From Staphylococcus phage AH12: a DNA stretch of 64,000 bases. The first letter of the stretch is position 1. The number at the start of each line of letters is the position of its first letter. The translations under genes and the position numbers were made by a program. Positions 6,497 through 60,026 of the stretch are shown here, one piece after another. The stretch is taken from the sequence record OR455461.1; one strand, written 5' to 3'. The notes below the pieces were generated by a model. It had not been told where the DNA came from. It ran no database searches and worked only from the letters and a program-made list of their open reading frames with translations.

Positions 6497-6544
6497 AGAA
6501 AGATATATGATAATATCTTTCTTCATTATTATAATATATACTTA
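6497..6544 (-). promoter_or_regulatory. conserved intergenic hairpin + TATATATTATAA element (candidate phage promoter / 5'-UTR hairpin)
   Basis: AGAAAGATAT...ATATCTTTCT hairpin next to TCATTATTATAATATATAC. The same architecture recurs at 16126-16175, 16821-16870 and 57121-57170. Confidence 0.4.
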
Positions 6545-6548
6545 ATCT

Positions 6549-6854
6549 TTATTTCGTTTCAAACTTTTCAATGCCTTTTTCTTCAATAACTACATCTGCA
6601 TTTAATACTTGTAAACGTTTACCATCTACATTAATAACAATGTAACTACCGCCTGCTTCATCACTATATTTAGTTCTGATTTTCTTTCCTTCATATTGAT
6701 GTAATACTTTACCATCTTTACTATATATAGTTACTTTTCTTTCTAGACCTGATGTATCTGATTTATGATCTTTAGTAGCATCATCAAACCATGTACAACC
6801 TGCTAACACTGTTGTTAATAATAAAACTCCAAATAACATTAAAATCTTTTTCAT
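6549..6854 (-). CDS. lipoprotein (lipobox LAGC)
   Basis: MKKILMLFGVLLLTTVLAGC signal peptide with lipobox. Confidence 0.6.
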   Translation of the reverse strand: MKKILMLFGVLLLTTVLAGCTWFDDATKDHKSDTSGLERKVTIYSKDGKVLHQYEGKKIRTKYSDEAGGSYIVINVDGKRLQVLNADVVIEEKGIEKFETK

Positions 6855-9188: not shown

Positions 9189-9799
9189 TTTTTAATTTCT
9201 CCTTTAATATTTAAGTTAAAGTAATCCTGAAATTCTTTTATATTATTATCAATTTCTTTATATTCTCTTGATTCTAATTTACTACTTTCATATTTGAGAA
9301 ATTCTCCATAAGTAAGTAATCTATTAGTATCAATACTGTTCTTCCAATGTTTTCTTTTCTTTCTTTCTTCAAGTTTTACTATTTTAGTAGCATCTATAAA
9401 TGATTCTCCTAGTAAAATTCCTGTTAAGTTTTTTATATTATAATACTCTATATACCAGTTTTTTTCATTTTTAAAATTATTAAAAGCTTCTTTAAAAATC
9501 TCATTATTCCCATTTAATTCAATATACCATAGAGAATAATATTTACCCTTAATTTTATATGATTGATTTAAAGCTCTATATTCTTTCATAATATTATTAT
9601 TAAAGAATATTATAGAGATAATTATCATTGGTATAAATATTAATAAAGATAATAATGCTAATTTAGTATTAATTGACGATATAAAAATAAATAATGTTAT
9701 CAGTACTGAAAATAAAATTGCATTAAATAAAAAAGGAAATATTGTTGAATTTCCATTTTTATAGATGCACCAATCAAATAGGTTTATTTTATTTTTCAT
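9185..9799 (-). CDS. membrane protein, tandem paralog 1 of 3
   Basis: N-terminal transmembrane segments. Shares ALNQSYKIKGKYYSLWYI...FKEAFNNFKNEKNWYIE...HWKNSIDTNRLLTY with the next two ORFs. Confidence 0.55.
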   Translation of the reverse strand: MKNKINLFDWCIYKNGNSTIFPFLFNAILFSVLITLFIFISSINTKLALLSLLIFIPMIIISIIFFNNNIMKEYRALNQSYKIKGKYYSLWYIELNGNNEIFKEAFNNFKNEKNWYIEYYNIKNLTGILLGESFIDATKIVKLEERKKRKHWKNSIDTNRLLTYGEFLKYESSKLESREYKEIDNNIKEFQDYFNLNIKGEIKK

Positions 9800-9806
9800 T
9801 TTATTA

Positions 9807-10424
9807 TCATTCCCCTTTAGTGTTTAAATTATAGTAATCTTGAAATTCTTTTATTTCTCGTTCCATATCATTTAATTTTTCAATTTTAAGTTTATTCTTT
9901 TTATATTTAAGGAATTCTCTATAAGTGAGTAATCTATTAGTATCAATATTGTTCTTCCAATGTTCTCTATTTTCTCTGACTGCATATTCCACTATTTTAG
10001 TATCTTTTATAAAGAATCCTTCTAGTAAAATTCCTGATAAGTTTTTTATATTATGATCCTCTATATACCAGTTTTTTTCATTTTTAAAATTATTAAAAGC
10101 TTCTTTAAATAACTCATTATTTTCATTTAAACTAATATACCATAGAGAATAATATTTACCTTTGATTTTATATGATTGATTTAAAGCTGTATATTCTTCC
10201 GAATTTTCATCATTTATACACTTAATCATTTTACGTGATATTATAAATATTATTAAAGATATTAAAGGTGAAAATAGAATTACACTTATATTAAAACTAA
10301 ATATAGAAATTATAGGTATAACTATTGCTAAAGATGTTAATAAAATATCTAAGTATTCGACTATTTTGAAAATCTCATTTCTTGTATATAAATTCCAATC
10401 AAATCTATTTACTGTATTTTTCAT
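9807..10424 (-). CDS. membrane protein, tandem paralog 2 of 3
   Basis: Very high similarity to 9185-9799. Confidence 0.55.
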   Translation of the reverse strand: MKNTVNRFDWNLYTRNEIFKIVEYLDILLTSLAIVIPIISIFSFNISVILFSPLISLIIFIISRKMIKCINDENSEEYTALNQSYKIKGKYYSLWYISLNENNELFKEAFNNFKNEKNWYIEDHNIKNLSGILLEGFFIKDTKIVEYAVRENREHWKNNIDTNRLLTYREFLKYKKNKLKIEKLNDMEREIKEFQDYYNLNTKGE

Positions 10425-11019
10425 TTAGTGTATCACCTCTTATTTTTAAATTAAGATGTTCTTTAAATTCTTTTATATACTTATCCAACTTAATATTTTC
10501 TTCTAATTTTAACATATTCTTTCTATATTTAATAAATTCTCTATAAGTTAGTAATCTATTTTTACCTGTATTATTTTTCCAGTTATATCTATCCAATTCC
10601 CTTAAATTAAATTTACTAATATTGAAAATAATTTTATTCAATTCGTGAAGTTCTTTTTCAGTTTCAATAACTCCTGTCATGTTAAAAAACCATCTAGAGT
10701 AATAATTTCCTTTTATTTCATAAGAAAAATTTATAAATTTGTATTCTGACATAATCTCATCATTAAAATATTTCAAGTATATAAATGTAGAAATTATTAA
10801 TATAGGGATAAAAATTGATAAAGATAATAAAAATAGATTGATACTATATAGTAAAGATAAAAAGGATATTAAAATTGACAAAATAAATATTGATGTGAAA
10901 CATCTGAAGGGGATTATTGCATCTTTACCTTTTCTATAAATATGCCAATCAAATAGATTCACTGTTTTTCTCATTTTATTATCACTCACCTTTCTTTTTT
11001 CTATAAAATGTTCTTCCAT
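10405..11019 (-). CDS. membrane protein, tandem paralog 3 of 3 (more divergent)
   Basis: Same architecture. Conserved NWKNNTGKNRLLTYREF. Confidence 0.5.
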   Translation of the reverse strand: MEEHFIEKRKVSDNKMRKTVNLFDWHIYRKGKDAIIPFRCFTSIFILSILISFLSLLYSINLFLLSLSIFIPILIISTFIYLKYFNDEIMSEYKFINFSYEIKGNYYSRWFFNMTGVIETEKELHELNKIIFNISKFNLRELDRYNWKNNTGKNRLLTYREFIKYRKNMLKLEENIKLDKYIKEFKEHLNLKIRGDTLNEKYSK

Positions 11020-13366: not shown

Positions 13367-13798
13367 TTATTCTTCTTCAAATAATTCTGGGTCTGTTTCT
13401 GGAGTGATTTCTCTTGAAGTGCTTCCTGGTTCACCTGGTGATTTAACTTCACCTTCTGCTGCTAACTCTTCTTCACGACCATTAGCTGAATATACTGGCT
13501 CTTCTGTTGTTTCATTTTGTTGAACTTCATTACTAGTGTCTACATTGTTATTTTCTTCTACATTGTTATTTGTAGTTTGTTGATTATTTTCATTTGTAAC
13601 TTGTTGTTGAGATTCTGTATTTTGCTGTTGTTCTTTTTCTTTCTTATTCTCTTTTTCCTTTTTAACTTCTTTTTGTTCAGTTTGTAATTTTTGTTTTTCT
13701 AATTGTAAATCCTTATAACTTGTATATGCGAATAAAGCTACTACGAATAATGCTGCTACTAATACAATTGCACCTAAACTTATTAATAATTTTTTCAT
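13367..13798 (-). CDS. N-terminally anchored low-complexity (Q/N/E/T-rich) protein, tandem paralog 1 of 3
   Basis: MKKLLISLGAIVLVAALFVVALFAYTSYKDL anchor followed by low-complexity sequence. Confidence 0.5.
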   Translation of the reverse strand: MKKLLISLGAIVLVAALFVVALFAYTSYKDLQLEKQKLQTEQKEVKKEKENKKEKEQQQNTESQQQVTNENNQQTTNNNVEENNNVDTSNEVQQNETTEEPVYSANGREEELAAEGEVKSPGEPGSTSREITPETDPELFEEE

Positions 13799-13825
13799 AA
13801 TAATTTCCTCTTTTCTAATTTATTT

Positions 13826-14299
13826 TTAGTTTGCCCATTCTTTAATGATGTCTGGGTTATTGTTTACTTCTTCTCTGATACTATCTACATATTCATTACC
13901 ACGTTGTGCTTCTACTTTCCCTTCAGTAATAGCTCTGTCGTTTTCATCCATGTAAGTCATATAGTATTCCATTAATTCTTCATCACTCATAGTACCAATA
14001 TCTGTATTAACTTCATTACTAGTGTCTACATTATTATTTTCTTCTTGACTTGGAGTTTCTTCTTGACTTGGAGTTTCTTCTTGAGCTACTTGTTCTTGAT
14101 CGTTATTTGTTTGTGTGTTACTTACTGTTTCTTGATTTTTACTTTCTTCAGAATCTTTTTGATTATTTTCTTGAGATACTTTATTTTGCTCTTCTTGAGT
14201 TTCATTTAGATCTTTATATACTGAATAACCAAATAATACTGTTGCTCCCAATACTGCTAATAATACTAATACACCTAATACACCTAATAATTTTTTCAT
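13826..14299 (-). CDS. N-terminally anchored low-complexity protein, tandem paralog 2 of 3
   Basis: MKKLLGVLGVLVLLAVLGATVLFGYSVYKDL. Repeated ETPSQEE units. Confidence 0.5.
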   Translation of the reverse strand: MKKLLGVLGVLVLLAVLGATVLFGYSVYKDLNETQEEQNKVSQENNQKDSEESKNQETVSNTQTNNDQEQVAQEETPSQEETPSQEENNNVDTSNEVNTDIGTMSDEELMEYYMTYMDENDRAITEGKVEAQRGNEYVDSIREEVNNNPDIIKEWAN

Positions 14300-14337
14300 A
14301 ATAATTTTCCTCTTTTCATTTTATTTATTTTATTTAA

Positions 14338-14946
14338 TTAAATACCTTCGCCTGGTTCTGGAATTTCTCCTCTTGATGCTTTTTCATACATCTCTTTTTG
14401 CTTTTCATATTCTTCATCCATGTCTTCTTCTTCATCACCACTATGTTTTTCTTCTTCGCTTAATTCATATTTTTTATGGTTTTCAGGGTTTGCCATCTCA
14501 GGTGAAATTGGTTGGAACTTACCTTCTTCAGTTAATCTATTTAACTCTGGAGTCATTTCATCTGTTGTAGCAATTCCATCTCCATTTTTATCAGCCTTAC
14601 GAATTGCTTCACTTACGATTTCAACGTCATCTTCTTTTGGTTGATCAACGTTATCACTGTTATCTACTTCTTGAGTATCTTCAACGCTAATATTATCCTC
14701 TGTTGAATCTGAACTTTGTTCTGTTTCTAAAGATTGATTCTCTTCGTTGTTTACTTCATTGTTTACTTCGTTGTTTACTTCCTTTTTATTTTTATTAGGT
14801 TTTTCTTTAACTTCTTGTTTTTGTTCTGTTTTTAATTCTTTATCGTTACTTTTTATATTCTTATATTGACTGTATCCAAATAAAACTGTTACACCTAATA
14901 CTGCTAATAATACTATTACACCTAATACACCTAATAATTTTTTCAT
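14338..14946 (-). CDS. N-terminally anchored low-complexity protein, tandem paralog 3 of 3
   Basis: MKKLLGVLGVIVLLAVLGVTVLFGYSQYKNI. Repeated NNEVNNEV units and an acidic C-terminus. Confidence 0.5.
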   Translation of the reverse strand: MKKLLGVLGVIVLLAVLGVTVLFGYSQYKNIKSNDKELKTEQKQEVKEKPNKNKKEVNNEVNNEVNNEENQSLETEQSSDSTEDNISVEDTQEVDNSDNVDQPKEDDVEIVSEAIRKADKNGDGIATTDEMTPELNRLTEEGKFQPISPEMANPENHKKYELSEEEKHSGDEEEDMDEEYEKQKEMYEKASRGEIPEPGEGI

Positions 14947-15158
14947 AATAATTCCACCTTTACCTTTTAATTTTTAATATGTAGAGTGGATCATAGAAAT
15001 AATCTACTCTTTTAAATCTATTTATCTTCATTGTTATTATTGAAGACTTCTTTCATAAATTTGAAACAACCTGTTGCTTTCATGAATACAAGTAACACGA
15101 TGATTGTAATAAAGTTTGCGATTAACATATCCGATACACCTCCTTATAGTTTAATTGA

Positions 15159-15937: not shown

Positions 15938-16125
15938 TTTCTTAATCCGAAAGCTGTAGTATCAAAGCTCTCAATCATTGAATCTATTTCTCTATAAGCC
16001 TGTTCTGATGGATATCTTACTTCATCATAGTAATTGATTAAATCCTCTTCGTTAATTTTAGTTTCCTTTTCAAATTCAATTCCATTTAATAATTCTAACA
16101 TAATAATTTCTCCTTTTAATTTTAT

Positions 16126-16175
16126 TAGAAAGAGATTATGATAATCTCTTTCTTCATTATTATAATATATACTTA
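16126..16175 (-). promoter_or_regulatory. conserved hairpin + TATATATTATAA intergenic element
   Basis: AGAAAGAGATTATGATAATCTCTTTCT hairpin next to TCATTATTATAATATATAC. Confidence 0.4.
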
Positions 16176-16213
16176 TTTTAATATACGTTACGCTTTTTCA
16201 AATTCAATTGATT

Positions 16214-16522
16214 CTATGAATTATTGAATATTCTGTGTTTCTCTTGTTTCTGATATTTTCTATGAAGTCTACCTGCTTTAGAAAATTCATCTGAACCTTT
16301 GTAGATATTATCTTCATAATTTTGATCTTTAACTTTCGCTATATGTTTTTCTCTATCGAAGATGTTTTGTTCCTGTTCTACTAGTTCATTAATTTCTTTA
16401 ATTAGTCTTTCTTTTTCTTTGTAAAGTCTTTCTGTTATAGTGCTTGTTCTACTTACTCCCATATCAGAATATATGTTTTTTAATTCTTTTCTTAATTCTG
16501 CTAATTTAGTTTTGTTATTCAT
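16214..16522 (-). CDS. coiled-coil basic protein with C-terminal SDEFSKAGRLH motif (paralog of 15614-15937)
   Basis: 102 aa. Confidence 0.5.
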   Translation of the reverse strand: MNNKTKLAELRKELKNIYSDMGVSRTSTITERLYKEKERLIKEINELVEQEQNIFDREKHIAKVKDQNYEDNIYKGSDEFSKAGRLHRKYQKQEKHRIFNNS

Positions 16523-16820
16523 TGATTTTAGCTCCTTTTTATTGTTGGATCATAGAAAATTATAGACTTAATGAACTTGATACATTATATTCATTAAGTC
16601 TTTAAAACAATTATCCTCTTTCCTCCTCTATCCTAAATTAGAAAACGGATGTCCAAACTTTATTTCTGAAGCTCTTTTAAGAACTTGTTTTTCCATTTCC
16701 TTTTCCATGATTAATTCGTCAATTTTATTGTTTAATATACCTAATACAATCCCTACTCCAAATCCTACTAATGTTTTTAATACTAATTTTTTCATAATAA
16801 TTTCTCCTTTAATTTTTATT

Positions 16821-16870
16821 AGAAAGATATTAATATTCTATCTTTCTTCATTATTATAATATATACTTAT
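16821..16870 (-). promoter_or_regulatory. conserved hairpin + TATATATTATAA intergenic element
   Basis: AGAAAGATATTAATATTCTATCTTTCT hairpin next to TCATTATTATAATATATAC. Confidence 0.4.
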
Positions 16871-16881
16871 TTTAGTATACA

Positions 16882-17514
16882 TTACGCTTTTTCTAATATA
16901 CCTAAATCATATAAATGGTTAACCATAATATAGAATTCATCTTTATCTATATTTTCATTATTTGGTATCATTTCAAATAAATCATATTTATTTATATTAA
17001 TAATATCTACATTATCCTTATTTTTATCTAAAATACTCTCTATACGAATTGTATTGTGTAATAGATTATTTAGTTCAGGTAGATAAAAATAGATATTTTG
17101 ATACTTACAATTATCTGAATTTAACTCTATAATTAATCCATCTAGTTTGTCTTTAATGTATTTGATAACTCTATCAAATGTGCTACCGTTTGTTAATTTA
17201 AAACCAGTAGATCTGATTACTTCTTTAGTATCAAAAATATTAGATTTAACAATATCATTTAACATCATTAAATCTTCTTTCAATAATTTGATATTTAAAT
17301 TAGATTCATTAAAGTTGTTAGATTTTAATGCTTGATATCTAGATTTTTCTAAATAGTAAATAATGAAATTGTAATAATCTTTTAACGGTTTATAAGATAT
17401 ATATTCTTCATTAATAATATCCATATACTCATTTATTAGTTTTGTATAACTATCATTCGTTTTTATTTCTTTAATATTTGTTACTAGTTCATTGACTTTA
17501 ATCATACATACCAC
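16882..17514 (-). CDS. hypothetical protein
   Basis: 210-aa ORF. Confidence 0.5.
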   Translation of the reverse strand: MVCMIKVNELVTNIKEIKTNDSYTKLINEYMDIINEEYISYKPLKDYYNFIIYYLEKSRYQALKSNNFNESNLNIKLLKEDLMMLNDIVKSNIFDTKEVIRSTGFKLTNGSTFDRVIKYIKDKLDGLIIELNSDNCKYQNIYFYLPELNNLLHNTIRIESILDKNKDNVDIININKYDLFEMIPNNENIDKDEFYIMVNHLYDLGILEKA

Positions 17515-17545
17515 ACCTTTATTTTTATTGTTGGATCATAGAAAA

Positions 17546-17788
17546 TTACATACCTAGAAAACTAGATATAACATTTACTCGCATTTCAACTATTGATTTT
17601 ACTGTTGATGATAACATAACAAGTGATATCGCTAATATAAGTTTTGTCCTTAAGCTTAATTTTCTTTTAAATATATAATTCTCTAAATAAGTAGATAAGT
17701 ATTTAGAAATTTCAAAAGATCCAAAAGCTATCGCTATTGGTATTAGCGTGTAATATAACAAAGCGATTATTATATCTAATATAAACAT
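17546..17788 (-). CDS. small membrane protein
   Basis: 80 aa, hydrophobic. Confidence 0.4.
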   Translation of the reverse strand: MFILDIIIALLYYTLIPIAIAFGSFEISKYLSTYLENYIFKRKLSLRTKLILAISLVMLSSTVKSIVEMRVNVISSFLGM

Positions 17789-17913
17789 TGATTCATCTCC
17801 TTTTTATTTATTTAAAATATATTATTATATATCTTCATTATTATAATATATATTTAAATTAATGATAATTACGAAAAAAAAAATATTAGAGGTAACGATC
17901 ATTAATTTGATCG

Positions 17914-22455: not shown

Positions 22456-22664
22456 TAGCTTTAATACCTACATTTTTTGATTTAGGGTTATTTAGTAAAT
22501 AAACAGCTATTTGTGAGTCTTTATTAAGCGAGTAAGTTCTATTAAATAATCCATCATTATATGAAATTAATTGATTTACTGGATCTTGGACTTTTAACTG
22601 TTCGTATTGTTCTTCTGAAAATAGTGCTATGATGTTTAAAGTGTCACCATCATACGTTTATCTT
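22448..22664 (-). CDS. RNA polymerase beta-prime N-terminal subunit, exon 2 (starts YDGDTLNIIALFSEEQYEQL...)
   Basis: YDGDTLNIIALFSEEQYEQLKVQDPVNQLISYNDG...SQIAVYLLNN aligns to [39 protein letters not shown]...SQDVVLGLYYMT (catalytic Mg-binding loop). There is no start codon. It is preceded by an intron-like element ending in G. Confidence 0.6.
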
Positions 22665-22834
22665 AATCTATATAAATATTATCATATAGACGAGACTATA
22701 TCATTACCATTTAAGGTAGAATATATTTAGTCGTTGAACAAATTATATTAATTTGATGCTGATTAATTTAATAATCTTCTCAGCAATTAATATTCTTTTC
22801 TATAAATCTCTCAATTTAAAGCGACTATTATTTA
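22665..22834 (-). ncRNA. compact group I intron B in the beta-prime gene (~170 nt)
   Basis: P AATTGCTGAG, Q AATCAGCATC, R GTTCAACGACTAAAT, S GATATAGTC and a P9 hairpin in canonical order. The element ends ...AAACG immediately before the YDGD exon. Confidence 0.6.
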
Positions 22835-22840
22835 ATCGGC
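22835..22840 (-). CDS. proposed 6-nt micro-exon GCCGAT (Ala-Asp) restoring NADYDGD
   Basis: Inference only. GCCGAT lies between the two intron cores, is preceded by ...CAAATG (a possible terminal G) and ends in T. Joining SNN + AD + YDGD reproduces the universal NADFDGD motif. Confidence 0.3.
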
Positions 22841-23041
22841 CATTTGTATTAACTTCATAGAGATTTTTCTATAAAGATTAGACTATATCAAACTCATATT
22901 AGTGAGTGAATTTATTTAGTCGTTGAACAATCATCTTGATTGATGCTGATTAATTTAATAATCTTCTCAGCAATTAAAATTCTTTTGACATTATATTACT
23001 ATAATGAAAGGCTACCTTTATAACCCATACCAGCAAGTATA
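22841..23041 (-). ncRNA. compact group I intron A in the beta-prime gene (~200 nt)
   Basis: Second copy of the P/Q/R/S core (core 22868-22986) immediately 3' of ...VVGISNN. The upstream exon's reading frame runs on into the intron and stops by chance at 23000. Confidence 0.55.
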
Positions 23042-38248: not shown

Positions 38249-38635
38249 TTATTTTGAATCTTCTTTAATTTCTTTAACTAAATTATTTATTTCTGTAGAT
38301 GTTAAATCTTTAATATCATCTACATTTTCGAATTTTTCCATTAAGAACTCTAATTGATCTGGAGAAAGATCCATAATTGAATAAAGATCTTCTTCTTCTG
38401 CTTTATTGTAATCAATACTAACATTTAATGGACTAAAGTAAGCATTAAGTACTTTAGTGTTGTTATTTTGATATCTTTTTTCAAATGTAGTATTTAATTT
38501 AAAAGGATTACCTGTATATAACTCTACTAATAAACGTTTTCTTAAGTCTTCATTATTAGAGTACATATTAGTTAATTCATTAATAGCTTTGATAGATCCA
38601 CCGATCATCATGTTAGTTGTTTCCATCTCACCGCA
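38249..38635 (-). CDS. RNA polymerase beta C-terminal gene #1, terminal exon (starts ..GEMETTNMMIGGSIKAINEL)
   Basis: The frame is open upstream of the first Met back to ...CGGTGAGATGGAA. GEME + 21 residues align to the universal [22 protein letters not shown] block. Preceded by an intron core ending ...AATAACTG. Confidence 0.55.
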   Translation of the reverse strand, partial: CGEMETTNMMIGGSIKAINELTNMYSNNEDLRKRLLVELYTGNPFKLNTTFEKRYQNNNTKVLNAYFSPLNVSIDYNKAEEEDLYSIMDLSPDQLEFLMEKFENVDDIKDLTSTEINNLVKEIKEDSK

Positions 38636-38781
38636 GTTATTCTAAATATTATTATTTAGCTAGACTATATCATTACCATTTAAGGTAGAATATATTTAGT
38701 CGTTGAACACTAATTAAAGTGATGCTGATTAATTTAATAATCTCTCAGCAATTAATATTCTTTACATTTATACATTTCTAT
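38636..38781 (-). ncRNA. compact group I intron (beta #1, core 38664-38761)
   Basis: P/Q/R/S core, the P3 pairing GAATA/TATTC and a P9 hairpin CTAAAT..ATTTAG. Confidence 0.55.
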
Positions 38782-38834
38782 ATAACGGAGCCTTTTATTT
38801 GACTCTGAGAGGATTGTTGTTTATTCTTGATCTG
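38782..38834 (-). CDS. proposed micro-exon (...KQQSSQSQIKGSVI) of beta #1
   Basis: Inference. The frame QIKNKQQSSQSQIKGSVI, joined to the terminal exon through a split ATC codon, gives QIKGSVIGEME, which aligns to [11 protein letters not shown]. The segment is locally richer in G+C than the flanking intron sequence. Confidence 0.35.
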
Positions 38835-39037
38835 TAAAACTTAGACATTTATATTAACTATATTTATTTAAAAAATAGATTAGACTATATCATTACCATT
38901 TAAGGTAGAATATATTTAGTCGTTGAACCTCTTATTTGAGGATGCTGATTAATTCAATAATCTCTCAGCAATTAATATTCTTTACATACATATTATTTCT
39001 AATACATGGGACACAAAATTTATCCGGTGTTCTTGTG
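38835..39037 (-). ncRNA. compact group I intron (beta #1, core 38882-38980)
   Basis: P/Q/R/S core with the hairpin variant TACCATTTAAGGTA. Confidence 0.5.
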
Positions 39038-39060: not shown

Positions 39061-39262
39061 GTCAATTGATTTTGCACTTAATTTCTATTTTATTAATCTT
39101 TATAATATAATTTATAAAGTATAGACTATATCTTCATTCTATATTATAGAAGAACTATATTTAGTCGTTGAACACTATTTAAAGTGATGCTGATTATTTT
39201 ATTACTCTCAGCAATTAATAATTTAATAATTCTTTAATTTATATAAAGAACGGCAAATAATT
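39061..39262 (-). ncRNA. compact group I intron (beta #1, core 39122-39225)
   Basis: P/Q/R/S core. P8 hairpin variant CTTC...GAAG with compensatory substitutions. P9 hairpin CTTTATAAattataTTATAAAG. Confidence 0.5.
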
Positions 39263-39283
39263 TACCTGATGGTTCATGTTTTA

Positions 39284-40829
39284 CGAATCTATATTAACTT
39301 CATATAGATCCCAGACTATATCTTAAAGTCTATGAAGACCTTTCACTTATTTAGTCGTTGAAGCTCTTTAATTATATTTTCAATCTCTTTTAAATGGTCT
39401 TGTTTATAGTTTATTCTATAAAGAGGAATATTTTTATTGATACAATATTCATCTTTCATTTTATCTTTCATTCTAATCTCTTCTAATTTTTCTTTAGGAA
39501 ATCTGCTACTAGGATTTTTCCTAAAATGCTGTTCACCATCATATTCAATTAGTACATTATAATCTACTAAATAAAAATCAAATCTTAAATTTTGATTTAT
39601 TTTTAGATCTTCAAATGTTTTCTCAAACTCAACATTTGTATTCGTATCAATTAAATATTTTTCTATTTGACGGTGAGCTAATGAATTTGCATACTGTTTT
39701 GCACAAAAAGGACATTTATTTATAGAATCTTTAAAATATTCTGCTTTCATTTTAAAATTATTTCCACATTTTTTATGATGAAAATTGTAAATATTTTTAG
39801 TTCCCTTGAATTCATTATCTAGTATTAAATATTCATTTGAATTAAATTTTTTATTACATATTTCTAGAAATTCTTTTTTTGTTAAGAATTTATTCTCTAA
39901 GCTACAATGTGGACATTTATAATCATTATTTAACATATTATTTGCTAGCATATTAAAACTTCTGTTACATTTTTTATGAAGGAAATTATGTTTAGTTTTA
40001 ATTCCTTTAAACTTGTCATCTAATAATTCGTAATCATCATAATCTTTTCTATTTTCTTTCATTTTTTCATTAAATGACTTTTTATCGTATTTTAATAATT
40101 TAATTTTATCACAATTAGGACAAATAATAACATTATTTAAAAAACTTCCTCCGGTCATTTCAAATTCAGTTCCACAATCATCATGTTTAAATTTTGTTAT
40201 TTTAGAGAATCCATTATACTTTCCTAAAATAGAATACCCACTTATATTTTTCTCTTTTTTAGCCTTTTCTAAAAACTCTTCATTACTATATTTCACAGAG
40301 AAACAACAATTTGGGCATCGATTCATATTGTATAAAAATTCAGAACCTTTCATTGTAAAATATTTTCCACATTCTTCATGGTAAAACTTATGGTGTTTTT
40401 TAGTACTTTTAAAATCATCAATTAATTTATAACCTTCAGTACTTTTTCTTTTGTTTGCTTCTTCCATAAAAGTTTTATTATTGTATTTTAAACCATTTTC
40501 ACATTTAGGACATCTCTTAGAGTAATCTAAAAAACCTCTACCTGTCATTTCAAATTCAGTTCCACAATCAACATGTAATATTTTATGATTAAATTTATAA
40601 CCTTTATACTCTTCTAATAATTCATAATTTCCAATATTCTTTTCTTTTATTTTATTCATATATTCTTCATGTGTTAATTTTACCATTTATTTCCTCACCT
40701 TTCCAGACCAATAGAAAGGATTTTAATATAATTAAATTAGCATGCTGATTACTTTTAAAGCTTCTCAGCAATTAAAGTGATTTTTCATTTATTGTTACCA
40801 ATATAAGGAAGCTAAAACATAATTTGTCT
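39284..40829 (-). ncRNA. group I intron with a homing-endonuclease ORF in the P6 loop (beta #1)
   Basis: P AATTGCTGAG and Q AATCAGCATG lie at about 40745-40785. The ORF 39343-40686 follows Q. The ORF's stop codon lies inside the R element (CAACGACTAAATAAGTGA). S GATATAGTCTGG and a P9 hairpin follow at about 39290-39330. Confidence 0.55.
39343..40686 (-). CDS. intron-encoded homing endonuclease-like protein: 5 tandem Zn-ribbon modules + C-terminal PD-(D/E)xK (DUF559/Vsr-like) nuclease domain
   Basis: Five repeats of the pattern ...F.H..CG..F.M....FL....CP.C. C-terminal ...RFDFYLVDYNVLIEYDGEQHFR. Own ribosome-binding site AGGTGAGG. Embedded in the intron. Confidence 0.55.
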   Translation of the reverse strand: MVKLTHEEYMNKIKEKNIGNYELLEEYKGYKFNHKILHVDCGTEFEMTGRGFLDYSKRCPKCENGLKYNNKTFMEEANKRKSTEGYKLIDDFKSTKKHHKFYHEECGKYFTMKGSEFLYNMNRCPNCCFSVKYSNEEFLEKAKKEKNISGYSILGKYNGFSKITKFKHDDCGTEFEMTGGSFLNNVIICPNCDKIKLLKYDKKSFNEKMKENRKDYDDYELLDDKFKGIKTKHNFLHKKCNRSFNMLANNMLNNDYKCPHCSLENKFLTKKEFLEICNKKFNSNEYLILDNEFKGTKNIYNFHHKKCGNNFKMKAEYFKDSINKCPFCAKQYANSLAHRQIEKYLIDTNTNVEFEKTFEDLKINQNLRFDFYLVDYNVLIEYDGEQHFRKNPSSRFPKEKLEEIRMKDKMKDEYCINKNIPLYRINYKQDHLKEIENIIKELQRLNK

Positions 40830-41402
40830 TTACTTCAGGTGATACAAATCTCCAACCATAAATGTTCTATTACTAACATCTAGTCGGTTTTTCTTAATAT
40901 TGTATTTATTGAATAAGTATCTGATTTGTTCAGATTCAATATTATCAAAGAAAGGTGCTTGATGAAGTACAATACCATTTTTAATAAAGTCTTCAATAGC
41001 TTCTTTAGTTTCTTCACTATCTAAACTATCAAATAATCTTACATAATTATCATAAGATACTTTATCTGCATCTTTGATATATTCTAATAAATATTCTTTC
41101 TGCTTATTAACATCATCTAACTTACTAATACGATGTCTAATAACGCTTGAAATATGATTTAATTCTAATTCCACTAATGCTGAAGGATTTCCTCTATTAA
41201 TAATACCCATATTATTATGAATTAAGTCTACTCTTTTCTTAATAGGAGTTTTATTATCTTTGGTGAAATCTTCTCCATCAAATTCAGTAATCATTGGCAT
41301 TTCATTATCTGGAACAATCTTAGCTACTACACCTTTTCCACCGTATCTTGTGCTTATTTTTGCATTTATGTTAATGAACTTCATAGACTTTACTAAGAAG
41401 AT
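40830..41402 (-). CDS. RNA polymerase beta C-terminal gene #1, exon C (GRHGNKG region)
   Basis: AKISTRYGGKGVVAKIVPDNEMPMITEFDG aligns to [29 protein letters not shown]. The end ...MVGDLYHLK aligns to VGYMYMLKL. The frame is open 18 nt upstream of the ATG (IFLVKS). Confidence 0.6.
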   Translation of the reverse strand: MFLVKSMKFININAKISTRYGGKGVVAKIVPDNEMPMITEFDGEDFTKDNKTPIKKRVDLIHNNMGIINRGNPSALVELELNHISSVIRHRISKLDDVNKQKEYLLEYIKDADKVSYDNYVRLFDSLDSEETKEAIEDFIKNGIVLHQAPFFDNIESEQIRYLFNKYNIKKNRLDVSNRTFMVGDLYHLK

Positions 41403-41537
41403 CAGACTATATCATTACCTTCATATAAGGTAGAATATATTTAGTCGTTGAACACTATTTATAGTGATGCTGATTAATTTTATAATTCTCAGCAATTAAT
41501 ATTCTTTACATATAAATTTTCATTCATAAGGGACCTA
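41403..41537 (-). ncRNA. ultra-compact group I intron (~135-145 nt; core 41404-41505)
   Basis: P/Q/R/S core, P3 pairing GAATA/TATTC, P6 pairing CACTA..TAGTG. The element ends with the S element + G directly before exon C. The 5' boundary is uncertain by a few codons. Confidence 0.55.
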
Positions 41538-42115
41538 TTAATTTGATCCATGCACTAAAGGTTTCTTCTCTAATACTTTAACTCTAAATACGATTTTATC
41601 AAATTGATTTCCATCATATACAAGTTTAGCATTAGGATCAATGTAGCTCTTAAATCTATTATAAGTTCTAATTAAATCATTACTAAATTTCTTCTTACGT
41701 ACAATATCATCAGTAACAGTTACAAATGTACGGTAGAAGTGTTCTAAATCTTTGATATATTTTAGGAATTGTTCAGAGTACTTTTCATTCTCTAATTTTT
41801 CAATTGATTCATTGTTAAGTACATCAATATCAATAACTTTACCATGCAATTTATAAGCGTTATCACTTTCAACAATTTTAGATAACATATCATTTTTAAA
41901 TTTATGGATTAACTCATCATAATTTAATCGTCTTGTTGCAGTTAATACACCGTCTTTAATTTCTTCACCAACGTCTGGAAATGCTTTATAATATTCTTCA
42001 TCTCCATAAATATTTAAAGGAATATCATTTGTATTTATAGTTACATTAACTACATGAACGAAATAACTTGACATTTTCTCAGCTAATGATTCTGATACAA
42101 CAATACCATCTTCCT
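41538..42115 (-). CDS. RNA polymerase beta C-terminal gene #1, exon B
   Basis: EDGIVVSESLAEK... and ...GEEIKDGVLTAT align to DSGVTAVAKRGGVV ... GEPVERGDVLADG. The end KIVFRVKVLEKKPLVHG aligns to KIVKVYLAVKRRIQPG. It begins right after the element's terminal ...CCTATAG. Confidence 0.6.
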
Positions 42116-42262
42116 ATAGGTTATAATTAATAAAATTATACCATAGACTATATCATTACCGTTTAAGGTAGAATATATTTAGTCGTTGAACACTGTTTTT
42201 AGTGATGCTGATTAATTTAATAACATCTCAGCAATTAATATTCTTTACATACATAAATTTCT
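42116..42262 (-). ncRNA. ultra-compact group I intron (~147 nt; core 42146-42242)
   Basis: P, P5, Q, P6, R, P3', P8 (TACCGTTTAAGGTA), S and P9 (GGTATAATT..AATTATAACC), then TATAG followed by the exon. Only about 22 nt is available for P1/P2. Confidence 0.55.
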
Positions 42263-42814
42263 TTATGCAGGAACAAAGTTAATTTTATTCGTGAATCCTT
42301 TATCTGGTAAAAATACTGAAGTAGCATTTGTACCATATTGGAAATTATTTGATTCTTCATCATAGTTTTGATCTTTATAAAGTACTTCATTTTTATTAAC
42401 ATTACTACCAATTTCTAAAGAATCAATTTTTTCATTTTGATATTTATTACCAAATTTCTCAGCTAAATGATTAGCTTCTTCTCTAATAATGATATCATAC
42501 TCATCATTATCTTTATACTTCACTAAATAGTATTTTACATATTTATTCTTTTCAAATATAAAAATAACTTCAAAATCTCTTTCAGCTTTCTTATAACCAG
42601 TTGAATATTTACCTACTTGATTCTCAAAACCAGTTTGAATTAATGGTGGTTCAGCTTCAGTTAATTGAATACATTGACCTATATGTGAAGTGAACATTTG
42701 TGATCTGTTACCATTAGTTCTATTAACATTAGGCATTAATAGTAATTCTGATAAAAATTCATGACTTTTCTTATCTTCAATCTCTTGCATTCTTTGTGTT
42801 CTTTCCTTTGTCAT
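42263..42814 (-). CDS. RNA polymerase beta C-terminal gene #1, exon A (region F)
   Basis: NGNRSQMFTSHIGQCIQLTEAEPPLIQTGFENQ aligns to ANRALMGSNMQRQAVPLL..EAPLVGTGME. Confidence 0.6.
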   Translation of the reverse strand: MTKERTQRMQEIEDKKSHEFLSELLLMPNVNRTNGNRSQMFTSHIGQCIQLTEAEPPLIQTGFENQVGKYSTGYKKAERDFEVIFIFEKNKYVKYYLVKYKDNDEYDIIIREEANHLAEKFGNKYQNEKIDSLEIGSNVNKNEVLYKDQNYDEESNNFQYGTNATSVFLPDKGFTNKINFVPA

Positions 42815-42851: not shown

Positions 42852-42898
42852 GGAATAATATTCTCTTATTATTCCACATTTTTATAATATATATTTAA
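42852..42898 (-). promoter_or_regulatory. conserved hairpin + TATATATTATAA intergenic element
   Basis: GGAATAATATTCTCTTATTATTCC hairpin followed by CATTTTTATAATATATATTTAAT. Confidence 0.45.
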
Positions 42899-42970
42899 TA
42901 ATAATTTTGTGCAATGGAATGGATCCAATGACAACTATTCATGTCATTGGATATTCCATTTTAAATATAA

Positions 42971-57450: not shown

Positions 57451-57750
57451 TTATTCTTCTTGATCATAATCAGTTCTAGTATCTTTAAGTAAATCTGAAT
57501 CTATACCAGCACCTAATAAATAATAGTAAGTGGTATTCAAAGTAGTTTTATCAGAAAGATCGTCTGGTAAATCTTCTAGACGAGTATAACCATACATTGA
57601 AATGTTTTTATTCATTTCCTGTTTAGCATTCATAGAGTCTGAACGAGGACCCATTAATTCTCTTAATATATCTTGAGACCCAATTGCTCTTAATGCTGAA
57701 GCTTCCATATTTGATACAGAAGCTACCTTGTCCGCACCTGAGAGTTGCGA
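57451..57750 (-). CDS. RNA polymerase beta C-terminal gene #2, terminal exon (starts ..QLSGADKVASVSNMEASALRAIGSQDILRELMGPRSDS)
   Basis: The frame is open upstream of the Met. QLSGADKVASVSNMEASALRAIG..LRELMGPRSDSMNAKQEMNKNI aligns to [48 protein letters not shown]. Confidence 0.6.
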   Translation of the reverse strand, partial: SQLSGADKVASVSNMEASALRAIGSQDILRELMGPRSDSMNAKQEMNKNISMYGYTRLEDLPDDLSDKTTLNTTYYYLLGAGIDSDLLKDTRTDYDQEE

Positions 57751-57897
57751 TTATCCTATATATTTCTATATAAGTCAGACTATATCTTATACTCTTTATG
57801 AGTACCATTATATTTAGTCGTTGAACAATCAATTTGATTGATGCTGATTAACTTTAATTTTCTCAGCAATTAATAATATTATCATTATCATATTACT
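57751..57897 (-). ncRNA. ultra-compact group I intron (beta #2, core 57777-57880)
   Basis: P/Q/R/S core. P9 hairpin TATATAGAAATATATA with a GAAA tetraloop. The element ends ...GGATAATCG before the exon. Confidence 0.5.
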
Positions 57898-58020
57898 ATA
57901 ATAAGCGGCCAAAATTTTTTCATTAAAACCGGTTTTCATTGATCTCGAGGAAGCGTCTAGACTGTATGCGTTTTTCTTTGAGAGGAGCTGCTGTACAATA
58001 ACTTCATACACTATTTTTAA
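57898..58020 (-). CDS. RNA polymerase beta gene #2, internal mini-exon (~120 nt; ..LKIVYEVIVQQLLSKKNAYSLDASSRSMKTGFNEKIL..)
   Basis: Locally G+C-richer island flanked by intron cores. SRSMKTG aligns to ARSTG. The ORF-track entry 57829-58011 reads through into the intron. Boundaries approximate. Confidence 0.4.
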
Positions 58021-58161
58021 TTAGTGTTTAGACTATATATTCATCCTATTAGGAGTTTTAATTTTAGTCGTTGAACTTTATTAAGATTATTCACTTAATA
58101 TTAGATGCTGATTAGCTTCATAAACTTTCCCAGCAATTTAAAAAATTTTACATATACATTA
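58021..58161 (-). ncRNA. ultra-compact group I intron (beta #2, core 58030-58140)
   Basis: P/Q/R/S core. P has TTGCTGGG, which gives a G-U wobble with Q, a change tolerated only at the RNA level. Confidence 0.45.
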
Positions 58162-58205
58162 CTGCATAAGGAGGCTACAACAGTATTTAACCTCTTAACA
58201 TGTAA
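58162..58205 (-). CDS. proposed micro-exon (..HVKRLNTVVASL..) of beta #2
   Basis: Inference. HVKRLNTVV aligns to MLKLNHLVD of bacterial beta. A G+C-richer island between two intron cores. Confidence 0.3.
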
Positions 58206-58340
58206 GTCATTTATCTTTACTATATTCATTTTATAGATGAGACTATATCTTCTTTGCCATATATTTAGTCGTTGAACAATTCAATTGATGCTGATCAACT
58301 TTAAATGTCTTTTCAGCAGTTAATATGATTTTAATTGAGC
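58206..58340 (-). ncRNA. ultra-compact group I intron (beta #2, core 58242-58325)
   Basis: P/Q/R/S core with correlated P and Q substitutions (CTGCTGA / GATCAGCATC). P9 hairpin CTATAaaatgaaTATAG. Confidence 0.45.
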
Positions 58341-60026
58341 TCATACATAAGTTAACCCAACTGGTACTTTATATCTAGTTCTTAATGGATCTTCTTTATT
58401 TCCATCATGTCTATAATAAACAAATTCATTCATAGGAACTTCTAATTTGTCTAAAGCTTCTTGTATTTGATTAATATCAGCTTCAGATTTATTAGGTAAA
58501 ACTTCTATATAGAAATTCTCATCACTATTTATGAAACGTTTAATATATCTCATAAATTCTTCATCATTCATTTCATCGTAAAATGATTTATAATTTCTCA
58601 TATTACTTTGATCTTTATCTAATGAAGATATAACATCAAGTATTTTATTTTGAATTTCTTGACGTTTCTTTTTATTGTCGCTTACTGCTTCATTTAAGAT
58701 TGATTCTGGTTCTAGAATAGTTTCATTTAAAGTATTTTCATTGAATTCCATAAAGAATCTTTCGATTATTTCTATATCACTAGATATTGCTTTTTGGAAT
58801 TCAAAACTAGCAGGAATTTCTTTAACACTAAATTTGAATTCTCCATTATCTTTAACATTCTCATCGAAACCAAATTTGTCTGCACTATATCTATTAATAT
58901 CTTCCATATTACCAAATATAATTGGACTATCAATACTAAAGTCTGCTAATACATATCCTTGTCCATTATATGACACAGGGAAAAGTTTTATTCTATTTTT
59001 AGATGGTTCTACATATGAAATTAACTCTATAGATTTGATCCCTAATTTCTTTTCCAATATTTTAAAATAAAGTAAAGATAATAGGTTAGGATTTATTCTT
59101 CCTTGATCTGGTTTAATAGAGAAGTTTTTATCTAATATCATTGAAGGAGTTACTGTATAATATACTTCTTCAGATTTATCTTCAGTAAATACAGGTTTAG
59201 AATTTTTAGTTTTATTATATAGGTAATTAAAAACATCTAATTCATTTTCTAATTGATACTCATAAATTATATCATTTAATTTATTATCAAATTCATAGTC
59301 TCCATAGAATTTATAGATGTCAGTTTCATTATATTTCAAAACTTCTTTATTTGTGAATAAAGGTGAATTGAGTACATTATTCTCTGTAAATATTTTATTG
59401 TATATAATATCTTCTTTAGAATCTGAGAAAATATTATTTCCCATAGATTCTAAAACTTTTACTAAAGTTCTTAATTTAGCATCATTATAGAAATTATACT
59501 TATCTTTATTATAACTTACATATTCTTCAGAATTTAAATACTCACTAAAATCTTTTCTTTTAGTTGAATCTTTACTTAGAAATCTAACTTTAGTAACTTC
59601 TGTAAGCTTATCAATATCATTCAAAATAGTTTTAATACTGCCAGTATCGTTAATAACGATAGGATTTCCACCTTTATAATCTCCAGCATAATCTATTAAT
59701 ATATCTTCTTCTCTACTCTTTTGATTTTGAAGAACGATGAATCTAATTTGTGTATTATCATTAAAATACTTAATTAAACTAATATCAAACCAACAAGAAT
59801 TTCCTTTTTTATCATGAATTTGATTTTCATTATAATCTAATAGAAAATCTATTTCTGATTCAGTGACTAATATTTCTGTTTCATTCACTAAATCAATAGG
59901 AGATTTAATTACACTGATATTATCTGATCCACATTCAGAACAAGATGTAATATCTTCATTATATTCTTGAACTTTGCTACAAGAATTACATCTAACGTAT
60001 TTATTTTTCAATTCATTCACTTCCAA
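58341..60026 (-). CDS. RNA polymerase beta C-terminal gene #2, exon 1 (N-terminal Zn ribbon; AGDYKGG and ..[19 protein letters not shown] blocks)
   Basis: [14 protein letters not shown] aligns to [40 protein letters not shown] aligns to [22 protein letters not shown]. The ORF ends where gene #1 is also interrupted. Confidence 0.5.
   Translation of the reverse strand: [561 protein letters not shown]

Follow-up and report, generated by a model that had tools for sequence, protein, structure and literature searches.

In the genome of Staphylococcus phage AH12 (sequence record OR455461.1), the beta subunit gene of the non-virion RNA polymerase appears as a string of open reading frames (ORFs) separated by gaps, which raises the question of what these gaps contain and where exactly the coding sequence is interrupted. 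We analysed a 64,000-nucleotide (nt) stretch of this record, called the window throughout, with a focus on two interruptions, I4 and I5. The first-pass annotation of the window had described them as group I introns of only 135-150 nt, with almost no room for the helices P1 and P2. Mapped against the related phages Machias and PALS_2, they measure 173 and 183 nt, respectively. Judging from sequence comparison and predicted structure, I4 and I5 are very probably bona fide group I introns with canonical helices in the non-virion RNA polymerase beta gene of a Machias/PB50-like phage.

Boundaries and size of I4 and I5

The ends of both introns can be read from relatives that lack them. PALS_2 holds the host gene as a single uninterrupted coding sequence (CDS) of 2142 nt, and blastn places its positions 1-525 on 42814-42287 of the window, 526 to ~1093 on 42113-41546, and 1094 onwards on the sequence from 41362. 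At the I5 junction PALS_2 reads CATGGAT/CGAAAAT and the window CATGGAT/CAAAAAT (a slash marks the junction here and below). The I4 stretch is exactly absent from Machias, where the alignment runs to 42287 and resumes at 42113, leaving the empty site TTCACGAAT/GAGGATGG within exon flanks that are 96% identical to the window. Deletion of the introns also restores the reading frames: removal of six introns from the non-virion beta gene yields an ORF of 712 amino acids (aa) that is colinear with the 713 aa of PALS_2 (82.6% identity), removal of two introns from the beta' gene yields a 436-aa ORF without gaps against PALS_2, and removal of three introns from the virion beta gene yields a protein colinear with that of the intronless phage SA1. 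Intronless gene, empty site and restored frames thus represent three independent lines that agree on the predicted boundaries. The intron-free proteins of the window, assembled in silico, match the Pfam families Rpb2 domain 6 and Rpb1 domain 2.

As an alternative, the first-pass annotation had placed the true 5' splice sites a few codons into the sequence assigned to the exon by the ORF finder, and the comparison supports this. Measured upstream from the last base of the stop codon, the 5' splice site is 24 nt away in I4 (ORF A), where the residues KINFVPA are intronic, and 8 nt away in I5 (ORF B). The 3' splice site of I5 lies 22 nt inside the downstream ORF, where MKFININ and the first base of the next Ala codon are intronic; the apparent ORF start MKFININA (41384...) is formed by the 3' strand of I5 P9 and the 3' tail. 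The gap between the first two ORFs is real, but spans 149 nt and not 147 nt, as the stop codon occupies 42265-42263 and EDGIVVSESL is read from 42113. For the second gap, the ~135 nt given earlier corresponds to the distance from the stop codon (41540-41538) to the G following the S element (41403), while the next ORF with an ATG (41384) is 153 nt away. Position 41403 had also been taken for the 3' end of the second intron; the true site is at 41363, 40 nt downstream. A 5' splice site of I4 after INF (AACTTT/, motif NFED) was considered as well and rejected, since both Machias and PALS_2 read ...ACGAAT/GAGGA.

Since only 19 nt (I4) or 33 nt (I5) separate the stop codon from P3, one could think of minimal introns of 135-150 nt that are bounded by stop and start codons, lack P2, possess nearly no P1 and would be the smallest self-splicing introns known. 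This is highly improbable, because such boundaries would leave KINFVPA, SN and MKFININA in the protein, extra residues that occur in no intronless homologue, and because the Machias empty site corresponds to a 173-nt insertion, P1 plus P2 fold from the bases upstream of the stop codon, and a 3' end of the second intron at 41403 leads to in-frame stop codons. With the corrected ends the space 5' of P3 amounts to 43 nt in I4 and 41 nt in I5, instead of 20-25 nt, and is sufficient for a full P1 and P2. Both introns are predicted to form a canonical P1 and the P2 hairpin that was thought to be lacking, with GAAA as the tetraloop. In I4 P2, the 5' strand contains the ORF A stop codon, and the intron start assumed earlier (42262) falls into the last pair of this strand, one base before the loop L2, which accounts for the impression that there was no room. 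Nor can the introns be called the smallest described: while most group I introns exceed 200 nt, putative degenerate introns of 56-81 nt have been reported from ribosomal DNA of Phialophora and lichen fungi (PMC3160393). These consist of P1, P7 and P10 without a canonical core, whereas the phage introns have a full P3-P9 core.

A truly split gene, the fragments of which would be translated as individual polypeptides that come together in the polymerase, with the repeats as intergenic elements, has hardly any probability either. RNA polymerase subunits of jumbo phages are known as N- and C-terminal pieces (Korn et al.), and the PB50 record lists the region as four separate 'beta subunit' CDSs. 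However, exons of 6, 18, 20, 44 and 63 nt cannot be genes, exon 2 opens at EDGIVV and has no start codon there, and a split would cut the motifs GADYDGD and GxKxxxRYGGKG in two. Moreover, the repeats share a covarying ribozyme core and U/G boundaries, and close relatives have uninterrupted genes. In the Machias record the host gene, annotated as 'non-viral RNA polymerase beta subunit, C-terminal', is a join of six pieces with a homing endonuclease within.

Predicted structure and covariation

That the gap elements are group I introns was correctly recognized in the first-pass annotation. Each of the 11 window copies, I4 and I5 included, contains the classical elements P (AATTGCTGAGA), Q (AATCAGCATC), R (GTTCAACGACTAAA) and S (GATATAGTC), those of I4 and I5 align to the consensus of the Rfam model RF00028, and the core covaries. 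In I4 this core is composed of P3 (GAAUAU/AUAUUC), P4 (UGCUGA/UCAGCA), a P5 of 3 base pairs (bp), P6 (CACU/AGUG), J6/7 (UUCAAC), P7 (GACUA/UAGUC), a 4-bp P8 (UACC/GGUA) and J8/7 (AUGAUA). P1 and P2 were derived from unconstrained folding of the intron 5' parts. In all 11 copies, the junctions of which are set independently by homologues without introns, this folding yielded a P1 with U.G at the splice site; in 9 of them it also yielded a P2 with a GNRA loop. Without exception, the 11 copies follow a U at exon position -1 and end in G. For I4, a P10 between GAAG of the 3' exon and CUUU just upstream of the guide is possible, as read directly off the sequence.

Given these helices, exogenous guanosine docked in P7 would attack the phosphate after the exon U, and the freed exon would then attack after the omega G. 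Splicing would join ...GFTN to EDGIVV... and ...VHG(S) to KISTRYGGKG..., by which conserved RpoB motifs would be restored. The small size of the introns results from the absence of all peripheral extensions.

For the family as a whole, the covariance model R1 was built from the ten ORF-less window copies with the hand-derived structure imposed. The 49 matches of R1 are distributed over the window, the loci from Machias and PB50, the initial 100 kilobases (kb) of LY01 and a small number of metagenomic loci; I4 scored 150 bits and I5 160 bits with this model. Pairs were counted in the best 36 of the 49 matches over the core, including P7 as a pseudoknot. In these 36 members 92.9% of the core cells were paired, compared to 78% in column shuffles and 30-45% with slid partners. 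Compensatory changes were found in 17 of 28 pairs; P3, P5, P6 and P8 covary, and P4 and P7 are invariant. From a plain MAFFT alignment, RNAalifold recovered P4, P7 and P8 only. When each intron was searched singly with RF00028, both aligned end to end, I5 with 42.3 bits (E 6.5e-10) and I4 with 18.3 bits. Larger metagenomic relatives of 220-270 nt that were retrieved by R1 reach 60-113 bits with RF00028, which is above threshold and thereby ties the mini-intron family to group I by homology.

Several observations weigh against the assignment of I4 and I5 to functional group I introns. Both remain under the RF00028 gathering score of 50 bits, a scan of the whole window with Rfam at threshold gave no match, and none was reported for 100 kb of LY01, where R1 finds 13 copies. 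The alignment used for pair counting was fitted to the structure of the model and is hence biased toward it. The specificity of pairing between exon and guide is modest: 4 bp or more are formed by 10 of the 11 cognate pairs and by 47% of the non-cognate ones, because the target sites resemble one another. The RNAs have a G+C content of 24-25%, short helices (P5 with 3 bp; P6 and P8 with 4 bp in I4) and a folding z-score of just -2.0, so that unaided folding may be weak and a protein cofactor is possible. Finally, we infer splicing and self-splicing from the structure and from the precise excision in relatives. With Rfam at E<=10 on 2.7 kb only chance matches to small nucleolar RNAs and microRNAs appeared.

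The same low G+C content, very short helices and weak z-score would also be expected if the introns, with the boundaries given here, were non-autonomous and required a phage or host protein (maturase- or CYT-18-like, or an RNA chaperone) on account of their reduced periphery. We regard this as somewhat unlikely. Both the Azoarcus intron and the engineered sunY mini-ribozymes, which with ~180 nt are laboratory deletions and not natural introns, are active without protein. On the other hand, copies without P2 and P8 reside in an essential gene, and most large ribozymes need protein cofactors (PMC2813881). The conserved GNRA L2 suggests tertiary docking by RNA only, and no cofactor candidate was identified in this analysis.

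Small size and distribution of the family

Larger relatives indicate how the size of these group I introns may have decreased. A scan of IMG/VR with the exact full P..Q..R pattern gave 0 matches, and with a looser one only larger relatives were retrieved, from 7 viral loci, 4 metagenome loci and 1 genome locus. In most metagenomic relatives, P3' is separated from the 3' strand of P8 by a structured insert of 42-83 nt, which we read as P7.1/P7.2-like. The extra helices P7.1/P7.2, located between P3' and P8 in subgroup IA2, are absent from 24 Staphylococcus copies, of which 20 have a P3'-J8/7 segment of 14-21 nt with a single P8 hairpin and 4 a segment of 5 nt. The short P8, as compared to the insert-bearing relatives, argues for a small size due to loss of peripheral helices. 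A GNRA L2 is present in 17 of the 20 copies with P8 and in none of the 4 without; this co-occurrence fits an Azoarcus-like contact between L2 and P8, although the copies are non-independent.

The pre-tRNA-Ile intron of Azoarcus sp. BH72 (IC3) has a length of ~205 nt, and all ten ORF-less window copies, with 147-194 nt, are shorter. An Azoarcus construct of 197 nt is listed (PMC8864457), and the P2 and P9 loops of the Azoarcus intron are known to dock into helical receptors in P8 and P5 (PMC2813881). Like the Azoarcus intron, the phage introns are compact, comprise P1-P9 only without large peripheral domains, and keep the GNRA L2, which was lost in exactly the four P8-less copies. However, the Azoarcus intron is G+C-rich and inserted in a tRNA anticodon loop, whereas the phage introns have 18-26% G+C and interrupt protein-coding genes, their core resembles the phage IA type and their L9 is mostly non-GNRA. 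With phage IA2 introns (T4 td, nrdB and sunY, Twort orf142) and their metagenomic relatives (loci L006-L012) they share the core GUUCAACGACUA...GAUAUAGUC as well as the location in conserved phage genes, often together with homing endonucleases. The relatives L006-L012 differ by their 42-83-nt insert, in place of which the Staphylococcus copies have a P8 of 4-6 bp or nothing.

Intron-rich phage genomes have been described before. In jumbo gut (Jug) phages, 2513 group I introns were counted in 136 genomes, or 18.5 per genome, with a mean length of ~206 nt and splicing backed by metatranscriptomes (PMC12880540, 2026). Jug phages likewise have many ORF-less group I introns per genome that split essential genes, but they infect Bacteroides, the targets are terL, nrdD and DNA polymerase, and the lengths derive from model hits and not from mapped junctions; the Staphylococcus family is shorter and stays under the Rfam threshold. 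Genes for subunits of RNA polymerase are moreover reported as intron-disrupted in AR9, MarsHill, Madawaska and Machias, which concerns the same genes and the same phage group (Korn et al. preprint). Class, size, structure and copy number of the introns are not given in that preprint, and the terms group I, self-splicing and ribozyme are absent from it. In our literature search, I4, I5 and the 147-nt, P8-less I1 are at or below the low end for canonical natural group I introns. The novelty is modest, since the introns are compact representatives of an established class and occur where abundant introns had been described before (Machias, Jug phages), and nothing here overturns current knowledge of group I introns.

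What the family offers is a comparative series. It comprises more than 100 natural variants of a 147-194-nt core, including some without P2 and P8, some separated by 6-nt exons and four back to back in LY01, from which one may learn which peripheral contacts group I ribozymes really need. The earlier suggestion that the near-identical cores form a natural test series for the minimal ribozyme is reasonable. The family also leads one to ask how neighbouring ribozymes with a micro-exon in common fold, and how they keep to an order of splicing. Because the family is invisible to Rfam at threshold, polymerase genes have been deposited as strings of fragment 'genes' (PB50, LY01); with a covariance model made for the family, all copies are recovered and exact exon joins can be set.

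A more far-reaching interpretation, which we consider unlikely and put forward tentatively, joins these observations into a natural reduction series of autonomous ribozymes from 194 to 147 nt, in which P7.1/P7.2 would have been lost, followed by P8 and the GNRA-capped P2. The 147-nt I1 would then be a protein-free self-splicer and the smallest natural one with a canonical P3-P7 core, and the ORF-less copies would have reached new RGRU/ sites within catalytic motifs through reverse splicing and not through homing by an endonuclease.

The family of group I introns to which I4 and I5 belong comprises about 105 copies in five Staphylococcus jumbo phages, with 11 copies in the window. A blastn search with I9 detected it in five of 50,697 phage records, at 33 places in LY01, 29 in Machias, 21 in PB50, 12 in Madawaska and 10 in MarsHill, and gave one short core match in a Twort-like phage. 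No mini-introns were found in S6, PALS_2, UFV_DC4 and SA1. The 5-kb stretch around the introns is 94% identical to PB50 and 92% to Machias, both Staphylococcus jumbo phages; S6, PALS_2 and UFV_DC4 show ~80% identity to the same 5 kb and cover just about half of the query. I4 is shared by the window and PB50 and is not present in Machias, while I6 and I8, and apparently also I7, are shared with Machias and not present in PB50. Presence and absence at the same sites among close relatives is the behaviour of mobile introns. As a driver of their spread we considered a retron-type reverse transcriptase. Its gene occurs in nine of nine Staphylococcus jumbo phages (56-87% identity to LY01), including four without mini-introns, and since it is present regardless of the intron load it does not explain the expansion.

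These phages are AR9-like, encode two multisubunit RNA polymerases and reportedly plaque and propagate inefficiently at 37 C (Korn et al. preprint). In LY01 (L018, 40375-41150, minus strand) four copies are arranged head to tail, with apparent exons of ~0-16 nt between them. The virion beta gene of PALS_2 (L004, ~1660-2290) contains an ORF-less group II intron (RF00029 65.9 bits, D1-D4 45.5 bits) 3 nt downstream of the I2 position of the window, and the annotated CDS reads through into this intron.

Copies and further features of the window

The whole window has a G+C content of 23.6%, and all of its introns and their host genes are encoded on the minus strand (Table 1). The earlier count of eleven cores is confirmed: the minus strand contains 11 R elements (GTTCAACGACTAAA), one of these copies holding a 447-aa ORF, and a core 18-mer has 8 matches in the window versus 0.26 expected. 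I4 and I5 contain no intron-encoded ORF, and among the 11 window copies only I6 bears one.

Table 1. Exons, introns and predicted intron elements in the 64,000-nt window
Feature	Position	Strand	Description and basis
Exon 1, non-virion RNA polymerase beta (C-terminal part)	42287..42814	-	ends ...DKGFTN, last base U (42287); alignment to PALS_2 and Machias
Exon 2	41546..42113	-	EDGIVVSESL...KKPLVHG and first base of Ser codon
Exon 3	40832..41362	-	finishes Ser, then KISTRYGGKGV...MVGDLYHLK
Intron I4, group I, 173 nt	42286..42114	-	5' exon last base U (42287), omega G 42114; Machias empty site
I4 P1	42271..42290	-	exon GAAU and intron AAA with UUUGUUC (internal guide sequence), U.G at splice site; minimum free energy and centroid folds
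I4 P2 hairpin, 7 bp, GAAA tetraloop	42251..42268	-	GCAUAAA-GAAA-UUUAUGU
I4 catalytic core P3-P8	42146..42243	-	family covariation, match to Rfam consensus
I4 P9 hairpin and terminal G (42114)	42114..42142	-	folding
Intron I5, group I, 183 nt	41545..41363	-	5' exon last base U (41546), omega G 41363; PALS_2 junction
I5 P1	41531..41549	-	exon GGAU and intron C with GGUCC, U.G at splice site
I5 P2 hairpin, 7 bp, GAAA tetraloop	41511..41528	-	UAUGAAU-GAAA-AUUUAUA
I5 catalytic core P3-P8	41405..41504	-	helices as in I4, but P8 of 6 bp (UACCUU/AAGGUA)
I5 P9 hairpin and conserved 3' tail	41363..41404	-	tail UUAACAUAAAUG ending in omega G; folding
I1, virion RNA polymerase beta, 147 nt	58208..58354	-	smallest copy; SA1 colinearity
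I2, virion beta, 194 nt	57996..58189	-	after 18-nt exon (58190-58207); SA1 colinearity
I3, virion beta, 180 nt	57748..57927	-	after 68-nt exon; SA1 colinearity
I6, non-virion beta, 1548 nt, ORF-bearing	39284..40831	-	same core; site empty in PB50
I6 ORF, 447 aa, endonuclease-like	40686-39343	-	inserted in P6 loop
I7, non-virion beta, 179 nt	39085..39263	-	after 20-nt exon (39264-39283); PALS_2 colinearity
I8, non-virion beta, 176 nt	38846..39021	-	after 63-nt exon; site empty in PB50
I9, non-virion beta, 168 nt	38634..38801	-	after 44-nt exon; PALS_2 colinearity
I10, non-virion beta', 182 nt	22841..23022	-	PALS_2 comparison
Exon of 6 nt, GCCGAU, between I10 and I11	22835..22840	-	GCTGAC in PALS_2; spliced ORF gap-free
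I11, non-virion beta', 180 nt	22655..22834	-	PALS_2 comparison

The smallest copy, I1, possesses neither P2 nor P8 and has just CAAAG between P3' and J8/7. Three copies of LY01 (L019, 875-1051, 14204-14382 and 14965-15127) are built like I1. The 6-nt exon between I10 and I11 codes for 'AD' of the catalytic GADYDGD motif in beta', and P1 of the downstream intron I11 takes four of its six bases.

The last ~30 nt of the I6 ORF overlap P6', J6/7, P7 and P3' of the ribozyme. In the ORF, a Cys-rich, zinc-ribbon-like unit forms four internal repeats (direct repeats 39698-40576), followed by a C-terminal segment ...IEYDGEQHF...; the ORF resembles the CapR-like plus Vsr-like endonucleases of PMC12350094. 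A Pfam search of the I6 ORF gave zinc-ribbon matches below threshold only, and its identity as a nuclease remains putative.

Outside of the introns, an AT-rich motif is repeated at 6505-6557, 16136-16188, 16830-16882, 17817-17869 and 42858-42910, the minus strand of which reads ...TATATATTATAA... and includes the AR9-type early promoter consensus TATATTAT (consensus from Korn et al.). One copy is placed upstream of the intron-rich beta gene, ~60 nt from its start. Direct repeats occur in three sets (9197-10592, 13704-14983 and 16087-17884), with a spacing of ~500-990 nt and 63-87% identity, and look like tandem paralogous small genes. At 1811-2212, a long imperfect tandem repeat is built of 9-15-nt units that are TCTTCA-rich on the plus strand; its minus strand would encode an acidic, Glu/Asp-rich low-complexity segment.

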